NCBI GenBank assembly: GCA_041613315.1
Contig: JBFJHJ010000010.1
Span: 10,596-74,595, forward strand
Direction: 5' to 3'
Source: Gemmatimonadales bacterium
Lineage (GTDB): Bacteria; Gemmatimonadota; Gemmatimonadetes; Gemmatimonadales; GWC2-71-9
Length of the DNA: 64,000 bases
Shown here: piece after piece, positions 57,401-63,400 of the stretch
Numbering within the stretch: the first letter of the stretch is position 1
How the letters are laid out: each line of letters opens with the position of its first letter
Program-made: the position numbers

Positions 57401-60400
57401 CATCGGCGCGTAGCCAGCGACGCTGACCTGAACCAGGTCCAGATCCTCGAAGTCCCCGGCGGTGAAGTTCGCGCGCGGCGTCGTCCGAAAGAGACTCTCG
57501 GGCAGCGAGCCGGCCGTCTCGGCGACGGACCTGGCGCCGAACACCTGGAGCGTGAGCCCGCGCCGGGCACTCAGCCTCCCGAGGTTGACGAAGACGTTGT
57601 AGCGCTCGGTCCCGGTCGCGTCGCGCCAGCCATCAGCGCTTTCGTAACCGCCCCCGAGATAGTAGTCCCACCCCCGGGCGGCACCGGCGACCGACCCTTC
57701 CACGCCGTAGCCGGCGAACGAGCCGGCGGCGATCTCGACCTCCGCCTCCCACGGCCCGTCTCCGCGTCGAGTGATGAGGTTGATCGCGCCACCCAAGGAG
57801 TTGGCGCCCAGCAGAGATCCGGCGCCGCTCAAGAGCTCCACTCGCTTCACGTGTTCCAGGGGGAGGAGGTCGAAGTTCACCTGCGCCGCGTCCGCTTCGT
57901 TTTGACGGACGCCGTCGAGGAACACCGACACCCCCGGAGGAAGGCCGACCACCGGGCCCACGTGAAAGCCGCGTGTGCTGAGCGTGAGCTTATGCGGACT
58001 CCCGAGGTCATCGTGCAGGGAGATGCCGGCCAGCGCGGCGAGGGCGCCGGCCACGGTGCGGCGCTCCCACGCCTCGAGGTCGCGCTCGAGGAGCAGCGAC
58101 ACCCGGGCGGGAACACCGGAGCCGATCCTGGGTCCCGCCAGCGGCGCAATCGTCGCGACGACCTCGACGGGGGAGAGCCTGACGGCGGCGCTGTCTCCGG
58201 CGCGAGCGGTGTCGGGTGCCTGGCCCGCCGCCGGTGCCGCGACCGCACAGGCCGCAACGGCGGCCGCAGCCCACGCCGGCAGCTCACATCGCATCGGCCG
58301 AGCTGCCGCCGATCCCGGCGACGCTAGGCTGGACGCCCCGTTCACGATAGGCACCAGCGCACGGCGGGCCGGCTCGCGCCGGCCCGCCGGTTGTCGCGTC
58401 GTCGTCCGCAGGGGCTCAGCGGGCGACCTTCCAGGGCGCGAGCGGCAAGGAAAGACCGTAGAGGAGCACTGAGCGGTCACCGAAATCGACGCCATCGGGC
58501 AGCCCGGTGAGCACGTAGGCGTACAGGGCGTACAGGCTCAGATTGGCCAGCTGACCGCGCGCGTTCGCGAGCGAGCCGATCTTCAGGAAGAAATCGGCCT
58601 CGAACAGGAACTTGTGGGTGTAGTCGCTGTTGCCGGTCGCGGCCGGACCGTAGCTGAACAGTGCATCGAAGTCGAGCGCCGCCGCCTTGGTGTTGAAAAT
58701 GTTCACGATCGGCCCATAGACGAACGACGGCGAGTTCGCCTTGCCCCCTGCCGCGTTGTCGGCAAACGGGAGCCACTGAATGATCCCGACGATCACGGTC
58801 CGCGGAATCTCGAGGGGCAGGACCGTTACGAATCGGATGTTGAAGTCGGTGTTCGTCGACGTCCCAGGGTCCTTGTCAATGAAGTTCGTCGTGATGAAGC
58901 CCGGCTGCATGACGAACACCGGGTTCAAGAACCCCTTGGTCTCCTCCTCCTGCGCGACTGCCGATGCAGCCAGACACAGCACCGCACCGCAGACCAGCGA
59001 AGTGACGCGTTTCATCGCTCACTCCTCCTGAAAGGGTGCCTCAGTTAGACGGCCACGCGACCTATCGATCACTACTGCCTCGCCTTAATCCGCTGGTTGA
59101 TCTCCCGTAACGTAAAGAGCATCCGGGTGTTGGTGTGCGTCTCCCACCAGTAGTGGTCGTCGAGTTGCGACGCGTAAACCCAGGCGCCGTAGGCGAACCG
59201 GAGCCCGCCCCAGCGAACGAGCGAGTCCAACGCGGCGCCGAGTGCCACGGTGTCCGCGGTCCCGGCGGCACGCTCGGCGTCGGCCAATCCGCTCCCGGCG
59301 AGAAAGCCCTGGAGATACGCGAGCTTCTGGTCGGGGTTGTACTGCGCCCACGTGATGCCGCTCGCCACGTTCCAGCGCTCTGCATCGCTCTGCGACGACG
59401 CAGCCGTGACGACCGTGGCGGCGGCTCCCACGAGCACGCCTGCCGTTACGAGCCCAAGGGTTCGGTTCATGGGCGCGATTCTCCTTTGGACCTGTGCTTC
59501 ATGGCGGGCTCGGCGCCCTCGACGACGTCGAGGCCGATCCACATGCCCGCCACCCCGTGCCCCGGAACGGCGCAGAAGATCATGAACGTGCCGGCGCGGT
59601 CCGCCCGGAAGCGGATGACGTCCGTCTGTCCGGCAGCCAACCCCTGGGCGAGCTTCGTGGAGTACGCCCGCTGGAACGCCGACTCCACCGGTCCCGGAGG
59701 GATCGGCCGGACGTCGTCGATGATCTGCGCGCTGTGGGGCAACACACCGTCCCGGTTGCTGAACGGCATGACGACCCGCCATCCCAGGGGCACGATCACG
59801 GTCAGCTCGCCGTCGGCGAACCCGTTGAAGTTCAGCGCCCCGTTCACACCGTTGTAGCCGGCGATCACGTCAAACGTGACCTGCCGGGCAGCGGCGTCGG
59901 AGATCAACCAGCCCGGGTCGATCTCGGTCGTGCGACCGGATCCCTGGGCGCGGGCGGCGCCCGCCCACAGCAGGGCGATGACGACCGTCCGGCCGATCCG
60001 ACGCAGTCGTTGAAGCTCCATCCGTTGCATCACTCCTCGCCTGCGTCGGGGCGCACCGCGCGTCCGCAGGCGTACGCCACCCCCGTATCCGGGGCGAAAG
60101 GGGGACTGAAAAAAATGCGTCGGGGGGGCGGCCCGCCAAGCCGCTCCCCCCAGCGCCGAACTCCTGCTTACATGCCGCTCTTCGGCAGGCCGAAGACGAA
60201 GACCGTGCTGCCCAGCGGGTAGTTCAGCTGGAAGTTTCCGCCGGCCGCGATGGCGATCATCTGCTCGCCGTCGAGCGAGAACGACATCGGCGCGGCGTTC
60301 GCGCCGGCGCCGCACTGGAACTGCCACAACACCCGACCCGTCCTGGCGTCGTACGCCTTGAACAGCCCGTTGCCCTCGCCGGTGAAGACGAGGCCGCCGG

Positions 60401-63400
60401 CCGTGGCCAGTGCGCCCCCCATCATCGGCTGCTCGGTCTTGGCCTGCCAGGTGATCTTGCCGGTGCGGATGTTGATGGCCGTGAAGGTGCCCCACTGCTC
60501 CTCACCGGGGATCGCCACGAAGGCGCTCCCGAGCCAGAGCCGGCCCTTCTCCCACGGGGCGTAGTGCGTCTTGTAGTGCATCGGCTGGTGCAGGCCGAGC
60601 ACGTAGACGTTGTCCGTCTGCGGGGAGTAGGCGATGGGCGACCACTCCGCGCCACCGTTCGCGCCCGGCAGCATCCGCGTGCCTTCGGGCGTCGGCTGGG
60701 CGTACATGTTCTCCTGTGGGACGAACGCCTCGGAGTGCCGGATCAGTCTCCCGGTCTCGGCATCGATGACGTACACCCAACCGGTCTTCCCCGCGTGGAC
60801 CACGACTTTCCGGTTGCCGTCGCGCGCGATGATCGGGGGGCTCGCGGCGTCGAGGTCCCACACGTCATGGGGCAGGTACTGTAGCCCCCACTTCATCCGG
60901 CCGTTGGCCGCGTCTATGGCGACGATCGACTCCGTCCACAGGTTGTCACCGGGCCGAATGGTGCCGTCGAGATCCGGCGACGGGTTGCCGATCCCCATGT
61001 ACAGGGTCTTCGTGTCGGGGTCGTACGCCGGCGTCATCCACATGGAACCGCCGCCCCGCTGCCACGCGTCCGCATGCCTGGCGGAGTCGGCTTTCTCCTT
61101 GGCGATGTTCCGGTTGAGGCTTCGGCCGGTCGCGTCGGTCGTCGCCCACTTGCCCCACCAGCCGCCCTCCGCCGGCGAGGGAATCGTGTGCCAGCGCCAC
61201 GCACGCTGTCCGGTACGAGCATCGTAGGCCGTCACGTTGCCCCGGATGCCGTATTCCGCTCCGGAGGTCCCGACGATCACCTTGTCCTCCGCGAGCAGCG
61301 GGGCCAGGGTGAGGCTGTATCCGCCCGCCGGGTCGTTGTCCTCGACTTCCCACTTGACCTCGCCGGTCTTGGCGTCGAGCGCCACCACGCGGGCGTCCAG
61401 GGTAGCCATGTACACCATACCGTGCCCGATCGCGACGCCCCGGTTGTTCGGGCCGCAGCAGAAGATCGTGGTGCCAAGCTTGTGCTCGTAGCGCCACACT
61501 TCCTTACCCTTCCGCAGATCGTAGGCGAACACCACGTTGTACGGCGTGGTGATGTACATCATGCCGTCGGCCACGATCGGCGTGTTCTCGAAGCTCCCCA
61601 ACCGCTCGATGTTGGTCTGAATGACCATGCGGGGCACGAGCCGCGCGACATTCTGCGAGCTGATCTGGTTGAGCGTCGAGTAGCGCTGGTTGGCGTAGTT
61701 CCCGCCGTACATCAACCAGTCGCCCGGCGCCGGATTCTGCAGCATCTCCGGTGTGACCATAACGTTGGGCACGCGCTCCCCACCGTTGGTCTGCGCGATG
61801 GCCAGAGACGGCAACGCCACCATCAGCGCCGTGATGGAACACCATCGGCCTAGCGCTTTCATAAAACCCCTCCTCAATGAGAATCTCCGAATCGATCGCA
61901 CCTCAGAACCATCCACTCCCGTGATTGTCCGATGCAGATTAGGACCACGCGCACAAACCGCCCCACTAGGGGGCGGCGCCAACGGACAGGCCGACATAGG
62001 CGTTCCGCGGCGGTGCCGGCTCATAGTAGCGGCCGCCCCGCGCATTGACCACGACGGACCCGACGTACGTGCTGTCAAACACGTTCTGCACTCCGACGAA
62101 CGGCGCGACGCGCCACCCGGCGATCACCCCCTGCCACCCCACCCGGAGGGCCGTTACCGCCCAGGAGTCGTTGCGCCCGGTATTCTCATCATCTACGTAA
62201 TATCCCGCGCTCCACGTGTTGTCCAGGGCGGCCCAAATGCCCACCGCGGCGCTGTACCGGAGCGAGATATGCGCGTAGTGCCGCGGCACCCCCGGGATCT
62301 CGTTGCCGTCGAGCGTGTCGGCGTCGGTCTGGTACCGGCGAAACCGATGATCGGCATAGGTATACGCCGTCACCACCTGGACACCGGGCACCGGCCGGAC
62401 CCGCAGCTCCAGCTCGGCGCCGCTGTGCCGGGCGAGGCCGGCATTGCGGAAGAACCGGCGGTTCGGAGCGCCCGGGACCTCGAACGGCACGAGCAGGTCG
62501 CGTACGTCCGAATAGAACGCTGCCGCGCTGTACGTCACGTCATCACCCACGCGGCCCCGCAGGCCGACCTCGTAATTCACGGCGCGCTGCGGATCGAGCT
62601 CGGGATTGAACCCGCCGGCTCCCTCGGGCCGGTTGGCGAGCTCCGTCGTGGTCGGTGTCTCGAACGACGTGCCGACGCTGGCGTACGGCCGGATCGTGGG
62701 CGCCGCCTCGTAGCTCACGCCCGCCGTGGCGGAGAGCGCCGACATCACGCGCCGGCCGGAGTCATCGCTGCCGTCGTCGAGAAACCGGTCCTCGGCGCGG
62801 AACCCGACCCGATCGTAGCGCACGCCGAGCGTCACGTCCATCCGCGGCGCGAGGTCGAGCACGACCTCGCCGAACGGGCCGATCTCGAACACGCGCTCGA
62901 ACTGGCTCAGCGTCAGTGCCGAGCGCGTCGGCGTGAAGTTCATGCGGTCGTCGCGCTGCCATTGCGCATCGAAGCCCAGCGTGACGACGTGGCGCGCTCG
63001 ACCGCGGACCAGCGGAACGGTCGCGGTCGCCCGGGAGCCATAGGCCCACCGATCCAGCGAGATGTACGCGAAGGCGAGCGGGTTCTCGAGATCCCGCCGG
63101 AGCCCGAAGAGCGTTGCCGACAGCCGGGCGTCTCCGCCAAAGCGATGGTCCACGCTCACGGCCACCTGCGCCTGCGTCACGGCCTTGCCCGCGTCCGCCG
63201 TCACGTTCCGCGGATCGGCGGCCGCCGGACTCGTGTCCGCCTCGACCCGGGTGAGCGCACCCGGGTTGTCCAGCGTCGGCTGGTCCGCGACGTGCGCGGC
63301 GACGGTGAGCGTCGTCCGCGGCCCCACCGGCTGCCGCAGCCTGGCCTCCGCCCGGCGCGTGTCCGCCTCGCTGTGGTCGCGGAAGCCGTCGGTGGTCGTG

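Follow-up and report, generated by a model that had tools for sequence, protein, structure and literature searches.

A lanthanide-type PQQ dehydrogenase and a neighbouring cupredoxin in Gemmatimonadales suggest direct transfer of electrons from PQQ to copper

The window – the whole stretch of 64,000 nucleotides analysed here, from a Gemmatimonadales genome – carries a gene for a haem-free PQQ dehydrogenase followed by one for a sulfocyanin-domain cupredoxin (Table 1). Because relatives carry the two fused, the electrons of this enzyme most likely go to copper and not to the usual haem protein, and we consider direct PQQ-to-copper transfer, by way of a shared periplasmic shuttle, the best reading and a fairly probable one. 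A preliminary description of the locus had named the cupredoxin the likely acceptor. Fusions and the exchange of partners in the downstream gene slot strengthen that proposal; against it, the cupredoxin looks like a shared shuttle, a cytochrome c is available in the genome, and just one of the flanking receptors has the marks of a PQQ importer.

Table 1. Features of the locus, in window coordinates
Feature	Position	Strand	Remarks
Second TonB-dependent receptor	56135..58495	-	True start probably near 58290; no PqqU signature
Secreted 199-aa protein, no known family	58416..59015	-	A porin-like gene holds this position in most relatives
Small secreted protein, no known family, 132 aa	59072..59470	-	Start overlaps cupredoxin stop (ATGA)
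Sulfocyanin-domain (SoxE) cupredoxin, 187 aa	59467..60030	-	PF06525, copper ligands, predicted fold
G+C-rich hairpin then 7 U, in the stretch separating the enzyme gene from the cupredoxin gene	60109..60155	-	Terminator-like or mRNA-stabilising
Haem-free type I-like eight-bladed PQQ dehydrogenase, 564 aa	60168..61862	-	TIGR03075, PedH alignment
TonB-dependent receptor, PqqU (PQQ importer) signature	61966..63999	-	5' end cut by contig end

The dehydrogenase falls in the methanol/ethanol family by profile search (TIGR03075, 490.4 bits against a cut-off of 480.05), and its top match among solved structures is PedH (6zcv; E 5.6e-84, 286 bits). Aligned to PedH it has Cys135-Cys136, Glu203, Asn293 and Asp336-x-Asp338, with E92, R141, T185 and W275 also in place; no CxxCH occurs in the protein, which thus has no haem c domain of the kind found in type II quinohaemoprotein alcohol dehydrogenases. 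The features of a type I quinoprotein alcohol dehydrogenase – vicinal cysteines, stacking Trp, Glu/Asn/Asp, a propeller and no haem domain – are all present, bearing out the earlier account of a haem-free PQQ alcohol dehydrogenase with the lanthanide-type D-x-D, the Cys pair and the Glu ligand. According to passages of PMC11996626, an extra Asp two residues past the catalytic Asp is the criterion for lanthanide dependence, and m-GDH of the E. coli type carries D-x-D too; both Asp residues are kept in 65 of 65 core-clade rows, and the metal is most likely a lanthanide. A predicted signal peptide, judged by eye, marks the enzyme as probably secreted, and the same is true of the cupredoxin.

With PedH, ExaA and ExaF (6ZCV, 6ZCW, 1FLG) the enzyme shares the haem-free eight-bladed PQQ propeller, the vicinal Cys pair and the Glu/Asn/Asp/Asp metal site. 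It is nevertheless distant from them (286 bits, versus 700+ inside its own clade), having Lys for Arg after D-x-D, Glu for Asn in GGAEWSP, Met for Trp in PMMGG and Ala for the pocket Phe; and whereas type I enzymes use a cytochrome c, as a rule the product of a neighbouring gene, and cytochrome c550 is the partner of PedH/ExaA/ExaF-type enzymes, the next gene here encodes a cupredoxin and not a cytochrome c. The lanthanide-type D-x-D and a periplasmic location are likewise shared with XoxF, the partner of XoxJ and XoxG, and passages of PMC10875860 place an XoxF3 in this same phylum. However, the Gemmatimonadota enzymes whose genes adjoin XoxJ-like and cytochrome genes share 31-35% identity with ours and sit on a long branch in a separate clade, and neither XoxJ nor XoxG is present at this locus. 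Low PedH and XoxF scores, along with the distance to local XoxF-like paralogues, argue against a place inside the PQQ-ADH type 2b (PedH/ExaF) or XoxF clades; in a tree without reference sequences, the enzyme may belong to one of the numbered types, for example type 8. The published supplementary data searched gave no motif match by which the clade could be named.

The cupredoxin matches the Pfam SoxE profile PF06525 (61 bits, cut-off 21). Its best model had been given as sulfocyanin (TIGR03094, 2e-12); the E-value is reproduced (2.4e-12), yet the 46.7 bits lie below the equivalog cut-off of 168.4. Alignment places type-1 copper ligands at His99, Cys153, His158 and Met163, unchanged in 14 of 14 sequences, and C/H/M are kept in all of the 80 best cupredoxin genome loci. 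The AlphaFold model (pLDDT 88) has rusticyanin (1rcy) and auracyanin (6kol) as its nearest folds, and with a cupredoxin fold and the His/Cys/His/Met set the protein is a predicted type-1 (blue) copper protein. The site, first described as intact and invariant, is indeed intact, but its Met is not invariant: in the closest relative (L172, 91%) Gln replaces it. Paralogues lose Met or Cys: a nearby one has Glu in place of Met, and the divergent one lacks the axial Met in all 11 copies read. The source genome encodes a second cupredoxin (C30:7658). A weak search for longer forms gave 10 matches only, mostly catalase fusions.

In 8 of 8 candidate fusions tested, PF01011 and PF06525 both exceed their cut-offs in a single chain; these are the complete metagenome ORFs L210, L212, L213, L215 and L220, together with P0250, P0209 and P0234 (the last from Alicyclobacillus sp., partial), and another search gave four further dehydrogenase-cupredoxin fusions. 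Every fusion read keeps both D-x-D and H/C/H/M, and the copper domain is C-terminal, where type II enzymes have their haem domain; nothing of the haem kind separates it from the PQQ domain. The fusions thereby copy the two-domain layout of type II quinohaemoprotein alcohol dehydrogenases (1KV9, 1YIQ, 1KB0), from which, in passages of PMC8348568 and PMC12124388, the blue copper protein azurin accepts electrons; there, however, the electron passes a built-in haem c, whereas the locus enzyme is haem-free and the fusions have copper in place of the haem domain. Fused enzymes are 41-54% identical to the locus dehydrogenase and are not its closest clade. A single clade of fusions is rejected on 42 rows, 6 of them fused (p 0.0002), but not on the 39 rows (p 0.28) that remain once the unfused nested L221 and two partial sequences, the long P0234 and L234, are left out. 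An AlphaFold model of fused P0250 (7 rows; pLDDT 68, pTM 0.64) leaves the linker unresolved and gives nothing on domain docking.

The downstream slot was compared across metagenome loci anchored on the enzyme. Among 43 core loci (at least 58%) the cupredoxin lies directly downstream in 30 and about 1 kb away in 2, too little room being left in 11; cytochrome c is the next gene in none of them, nor in any of 65 core rows. Sister enzymes (44-55%, 37 loci) are followed by cytochrome c in 18 cases, by other genes in 8 and by no room in 6, while 5 have a fused cupredoxin. In three core loci from two subclades (L042, L130, L136) a CuA subunit II and oxidase subunit I stand directly downstream.

The pairing is nonetheless loose, not obligate. 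In a sample of 301 genomes the core enzyme (at least 700 bits) occurs in 59 and the cupredoxin in 115, and all 59 genomes with the enzyme also have a cupredoxin match, which agrees with the earlier observation on 17 genomes. A spacing of at most 2.5 kb, then reported for 16 of 17, is not borne out in the larger sample: the cupredoxin is directly downstream of 30 of 64 core genes and nearby on the same strand in 3 more (33/64), 17 have only the divergent paralogue nearby, and 14 have neither, as far as loci were listed or fetched. The cupredoxins of L062, L069 and L101, missed by gene calling, were counted through tblastn. For a cupredoxin present in 1-3 copies in a 3-4 Mb genome, the chance of lying within 700 nt downstream is an estimated 1 in 5,000 or so, though kin are not independent. 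Seen from the 80 best cupredoxin loci, the commonest neighbours are a PQQ enzyme (35) and PqqU (21), and PqqU and cupredoxin stand together with no enzyme between them in 21; 45 have no PQQ enzyme directly upstream, and the cupredoxin therefore looks like a shared shuttle and not a dedicated partner. A Cyc2-motif gene precedes it in 5 of the 80, and in L048, and in P0265 the same domain is fused to cytochrome b and c; the cupredoxin thus sits after other electron donors as well.

Between enzyme and cupredoxin genes a hairpin is found in most of 14 relatives, the U run following it solely here. Folding of the 101-nt region is not beyond that of shuffles (z -0.32), the terminator scan did not list this hairpin, and the promoter/terminator scan gave no promoter and no more terminators than chance. 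On the side of the pairing, the two genes are separated by -4 to 1 nt in 5 of 60 pairs. The 132-aa protein has no Pfam or NCBIfam match, and its atlas matches are unnamed Gemmatimonadota clusters (0.93-0.94), a Rap1a lead reaching merely 0.88. It is a conserved companion of the enzyme, which it follows also at loci without the cupredoxin; its conserved residues are mainly aromatic, with two Asp at 76-78% of 49. The 199-aa protein found no family in profile searches; its position suggests a porin role. A selenocysteine formate dehydrogenase 8 kb away was dropped as part of the locus, being absent from relatives' flanks, and the CxxCH of a protein encoded just before many of the loci, considered as a haem site, is a thioredoxin-like CxxC instead.

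Two PQQ-transporter-like TonB receptors had been said to flank the pair, which holds for the upstream one. This receptor, inside whose gene the contig ends at window position 64000, has E. coli PqqU (9c4o) as top solved match (E 1e-86) and, in 35 of 35 homologues, F, K, R and R where PqqU has Y99, K274, R304 and R365, the last position being located by its distance from an anchor Gly, as HMMER left that region out; NF041535 scores 356 bits, below its equivalog cut-off of 1200. Passages of PMC12124388 give the PqqU signature as an aromatic at Y99 with R304 and R365, and describe PqqU as widespread in Gemmatimonadetes. The upstream receptor fits these three residues; the downstream one, with Val, Arg and Ala in a weak alignment (E 2.5e-19), does not. 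Receptors encoded next to a lanmodulin-like EF-hand gene and next to pqqBCDE share 30-32% identity with it, another homologue adjoins nickel/copper genes, and only L172 has it at this place. PqqU as top structure without the PQQ residues, and the pqq or lanmodulin neighbours of homologues, fit a LutH-like receptor, in a comparison that held no tested lanthanide receptor with which to cluster it; it is a possible importer of lanthanide or another metal. A tblastn search with PqqB/C/D/E from L170 did not find pqqB/C/D in the source genome, which is 83% complete.

That the locus has no cytochrome c is upheld by gene calls from window position 39,400 to the contig end at 64,000, which include no CxxCH gene, but the genome does encode one elsewhere (C5:25117). 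It is 38-45% identical to the sister clade's partner cytochrome and adjoins a gene that we take, from its motif, to be nitrous-oxide-reductase-like. The genome also encodes three haem-copper oxidases; no Cyc2-like gene was found among its called genes.

In the mechanism we favour, the upstream receptor would import external PQQ, and the dehydrogenase would bind it with, most likely, a lanthanide and, as its class suggests, oxidise a small alcohol, diol or aldehyde in the periplasm. The acid product may be imported, a tentative step suggested by the monocarboxylate transporter that stands upstream in other genera. Reduced PQQ would then pass electrons, directly and one at a time, to the type-1 copper, as fusions and slot exchange indicate, and the cupredoxin would deliver them to a haem-copper oxidase at its CuA centre. 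As a shared shuttle it could serve other donors, and where it is absent the enzyme may turn to different acceptors. A quinone cofactor is known to pass electrons straight to type-1 copper in methylamine dehydrogenase with amicyanin and aromatic amine dehydrogenase with azurin, although these have protein-derived TTQ, another fold and other cupredoxin families. Besides the loose pairing and the cytochrome c and second cupredoxin encoded elsewhere in the genome, the U-run hairpin that parts the two genes here and the identity of the fusions, 41-54% only, count against this mechanism. Complex prediction for enzyme and cupredoxin scored 0.15 against a mark of 0.32, controls not having been run, and is evidence neither way.

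The main competitor, appreciably less probable, is that, like PedH/ExaA and XoxF, the enzyme hands its electrons to a cytochrome c whose gene lies elsewhere, the cupredoxin being a later carrier (cytochrome c to copper to oxidase) or one of several interchangeable acceptors. Sister clades with cytochrome c directly downstream (18 of 37) are consistent with this, as is the homologue of that cytochrome in the source genome, although it sits by the nitrous-oxide-reductase-like gene. Of the 6 core loci in family f2, 5 lack an adjacent cupredoxin, and 6-8 kb downstream of them stands a second PQQ enzyme that has a monohaem cytochrome c of its own; about half of all core genes have no adjacent Met-type cupredoxin; and type II enzymes reach azurin through their own haem (passages of PMC8348568). 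Yet the fused proteins have no haem domain to bridge the two centres, and cytochrome c is the next gene of a core enzyme in none of the 43 loci and 65 rows compared.

We think it unlikely that the cupredoxin is a passenger, co-located and co-regulated with PqqU and serving other periplasmic PQQ or flavin enzymes or copper handling. Its persistence beside PqqU without the enzyme, its presence without the core enzyme in 20 of 23 f6 and 17 of 47 f7 genomes, and the loss of Met or Cys in paralogues would fit such a role, but enzyme fusions occur in distant lineages, and the cupredoxin travels with the enzyme into contexts without PqqU, sitting immediately upstream of it in two loci and on its downstream side elsewhere. 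Least credible of all is an iron-oxidation protein in an incidental neighbourhood. Gemmatimonadota sulfocyanin matches are annotated as putative iron oxidase in passages of PMC11316326 and PMC10367259, and like sulfocyanin and rusticyanin the protein has a SoxE domain over cut-off, H/C/H/M and a rusticyanin-like fold, and some relatives have a member of its family after a Cyc2-like gene, as in the Cyc2-rusticyanin chain; but its score is far below the sulfocyanin equivalog cut-off, Cyc2 is missing from the called genes, and its main neighbours are the PQQ enzyme and PqqU.

In the literature consulted, cytochrome c is the electron acceptor of haem-free PQQ alcohol dehydrogenases, and a copper protein accepts from a PQQ enzyme only behind a haem domain; no direct PQQ dehydrogenase-cupredoxin pair was found in the literature searched. 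Our fullest reading, in which we place an evenly balanced confidence, is of an undescribed class of lanthanide PQQ dehydrogenase with type-1 copper as first acceptor, split in Gemmatimonadales and fused as a haem-free 'quinocuproprotein' as far as Alicyclobacillus. Some loci would be wired to a CuA oxidase, forming a PQQ-to-oxygen chain without cytochrome c; the locus would supply both cofactors, scavenged PQQ through the upstream receptor and lanthanide through the downstream one; and 'sulfocyanins' would take part in organic oxidation.

The locus is also a warning against equating SoxE matches in Gemmatimonadota with iron oxidation: if the reading is true, many 'sulfocyanin' genes so interpreted would serve the oxidation of organic substrates, in an abundant soil phylum of which 59 of 301 sampled genomes carry the enzyme clade. 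A direct PQQ-to-copper route with natural fusions would be a third wiring of a well-studied enzyme family, and would offer a simple set-up in which lanthanide-PQQ electron transfer can be followed by spectroscopy, as well as a possible basis for bioelectrodes of the direct-transfer kind.

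The PQQ dehydrogenase described here and the cupredoxin encoded next to it belong to a system that is real, conserved and not ordinary. The two genes lie in a run of six, the order of which is identical in the closest relative found (locus L172, 91%); signal peptides of the locus proteins were called by eye.

Features of the locus and its surroundings, in window coordinates
Feature	Position	Strand	Remarks
TonB receptor (upstream), 5′ end cut by contig end	61966-63999	-	first gene from contig end (contig C10 ends at 64000)
PQQ dehydrogenase	60168-61862	-	second gene
Cupredoxin	59467-60030	-	third gene
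132-aa secreted protein	59072-59470	-	start overlaps stop of cupredoxin gene
199-aa secreted protein	58416-59015	-	fifth gene; followed by second TonB receptor
TonB receptor (downstream)	56135-58495	-	
818-aa frame	53660-56116	+	converges on second receptor; no Pfam or NCBIfam family
fdhD	52653-53465		
Formate dehydrogenase alpha subunit	49139-51889	+	in-frame TGA at codon 364, the usual selenocysteine place; NuoE/F-like gene upstream; selD and tRNA-Sec present in this genome

The enzyme exceeds the TIGR03075 cut-off (490 against 480 bits) and its best solved match is PedH (6zcv, 286 bits), the protein to which a passage of PMC11996626 also assigns 6ZCW. It retains the Cys pair, Glu203, Trp275, Asn293 and Asp336-x-Asp338, and contains no CxxCH. 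In a passage of the same paper D-x-D marks enzymes that bind a lanthanide at least facultatively, and the metal here would accordingly be a lanthanide; several pocket positions differ from those of PedH. The enzyme falls in a separate clade (65 of 93 rows, FastTree support 0.99, with some loci present twice in the tree), and its named homologues are Gemmatimonadales. In other genera a transporter slightly below the L-lactate MFS cut-off (310.7 against 320) stands upstream of the enzyme, which hints at import of an acid product.

The D-x-D site is missing from related enzymes (53–54%) at L146 and L149, where its two Asp positions read G/D and D/A and the Glu ligand is replaced by Asp; no cupredoxin match came from the genomes of these two. 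At L155, L156, L236 and L240 a related PQQ domain follows a long N-terminal membrane region, labelled glycosyltransferase-like by eye, in proteins of 1,050–1,150 aa. This genome encodes two more PQQ enzymes (PF01011), at C36:9649-11601 and at C13:4564-7049, the latter with its own monohaem cytochrome c immediately upstream.

The cupredoxin exceeds the Pfam SoxE cut-off and scores far below the sulfocyanin equivalog level. His99, Cys153, His158 and Met163 are kept in 14 of 14 aligned sequences; across the best 80 genome loci Cys, His and Met are present in all and the first His motif in 76, in a scan whose search pattern already required the His and Met. The structural model (pLDDT 88) has rusticyanin and auracyanin as its nearest folds. 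In L172 the axial position is Gln (L172:3648-4199). A paralogue with axial Glu is present here at C1:97853-98380 (L045:9923-10387) and also in L034-L039 and L131-L133; Met is absent from all 11 copies read, nine of which have Cys, His and Glu and two no Cys. It is often divergent and upstream of the enzyme, beside a thioredoxin-like gene and DUF1684.

How closely are enzyme and cupredoxin linked? Among 301 genomes drawn from the phylum the enzyme was matched in 72 (E<=1e-100) and the cupredoxin in 115. At 700 bits or more there are 64 enzyme genes in 59 genomes, every one of which has a cupredoxin match; 56 further genomes have the cupredoxin without an enzyme gene at that level, a few of them containing cut pieces of it. 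The cupredoxin is directly downstream of 30 of the 64 genes and on the same strand nearby for three; 13 have only a divergent weak match, and 18 have no cupredoxin among the matches listed. Inspection of 15 of these 18 loci revealed the Glu paralogue in four, genes for a CuA subunit II and an oxidase subunit I in two, a porin-like gene next in three and no cupredoxin in six, all of family f2. In five f2 loci of the enzyme's own clade (one at 651 bits) the DNA 6–8 kb downstream encodes a further PQQ enzyme together with a binding protein and a monohaem cytochrome c; another f2 locus has a cbb3-like pair upstream. Viewed from the cupredoxin (best 80 loci), the upstream gene is the enzyme in 35, a PqqU-like gene without the enzyme in 21, Cyc2-like in five (called by a motif from passages of PMC8406198) and something else in 14, with no room in five. 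Rows for genomes G199 and G082 and the loci of G014 are included in counts, trees and alignments; no conclusion rests on them. The neighbourhood counts from both sides thus place the link far above chance, yet it is not obligate; it is largely one inherited operon.

Evidence for the cupredoxin as the probable electron acceptor comes from exchange of the gene slot, from fusions and from the same domain following other donors. In 80 enzyme-anchored metagenome loci, many of them near-duplicates, the 43 core loci (the enzyme's own clade) have the cupredoxin next in 30, at about 1 kb in two and too little room in 11; two copies appear frameshifted. Cytochrome c is the next gene in none of the 43 and in 18 of 37 loci of the sister enzymes. 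Three core loci from two subclades (L042, L130, L136) have a CuA oxidase directly 3′ of the enzyme gene, encoded as subunit II plus a divergent subunit I of the haem-copper type. A PQQ domain and, C-terminal to it, the same cupredoxin share a single frame in L210, L212, L213, L215 and L220, and in the proteins P0250, P0209 and partial P0234 (named Alicyclobacillus): both Pfam domains exceed their cut-offs in all eight, and four more fusions were seen. These PQQ domains are 41–54% identical to this enzyme and fall at three places in the tree; single and repeated origins are both possible. The same cupredoxin domain also comes after Cyc2-like genes, and in P0265 (Chloroflexota) it is fused to cytochromes b and c. 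Direct quinone-to-copper transfer has a precedent in TTQ enzymes.

Against a direct copper route we count other redox proteins in this genome: a product at C5:25117 that is 38–45% identical to the cytochrome following sister enzymes, one plastocyanin/azurin-family protein and three haem-copper oxidases. Of the called genes, 36 contain CxxCH, that at C5:25117 among them; many are not cytochromes. No cytochrome c lies upstream of the first receptor in relatives with enough room, this genome's own DNA ending inside that receptor. A hairpin with seven U between the enzyme and cupredoxin genes also speaks against the pairing, a point softened by relatives, whose hairpin has no U run, and by the five of 60 pairs in which the genes touch or overlap.

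The cupredoxin also occurs in other company. The one-chain arrangement of cytochrome b, cytochrome c and SoxE cupredoxin in P0265 recurs in P0283-P0288 (Chloroflexota). A Cyc2-motif cytochrome-porin gene directly precedes the cupredoxin at six Gemmatimonadota loci (L048, L100, L114, L120, L127, L128; motif read in five), an arrangement similar to Cyc2-rusticyanin. A catalase-like domain is fused to it in L121:4065-5546 and P0274-P0282 (9 of 10 matches among longer proteins). At L104, L108 and L112 it lies immediately upstream of a 2Fe-2S/molybdopterin pair, aldehyde-oxidoreductase-like by eye and possibly another donor.

The upstream receptor matches E. coli PqqU (E 1e-86) and has the PqqU signature, its residues published in a section of PMC12124388, which all 35 of its 35 homologues share. 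A tblastn search of this genome, 82.9% complete, gave nothing for PqqB, C or D and, for PqqE, no more than distant radical-SAM matches, which fits a cell that would scavenge PQQ from outside. The downstream receptor lacks the signature. Its plasmid homologues adjoin a lanmodulin-like EF-hand gene, pqqBCDE, or nickel/copper genes; the first two neighbours fit a putative lanthanide receptor of the kind described in part of 10.64898/2026.07.10.737718.

In the literature searched, mostly outside subscription journals, no PQQ enzyme had a sulfocyanin-like protein as its partner, whether separate or fused. According to passages of PMC8348568, azurin accepts the electrons of type II enzymes, which bear haem, and parts of PMC11316326 and PMC10367259 interpret Gemmatimonadota sulfocyanin as an iron oxidase. 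The analysis shows the genes, their motifs and neighbourhoods and the fusions, and from there infers the metal, the substrate and the path of the electrons. On balance we favour a variant of the type I systems of PQQ dehydrogenases, with the cupredoxin most likely standing in for cytochrome c.
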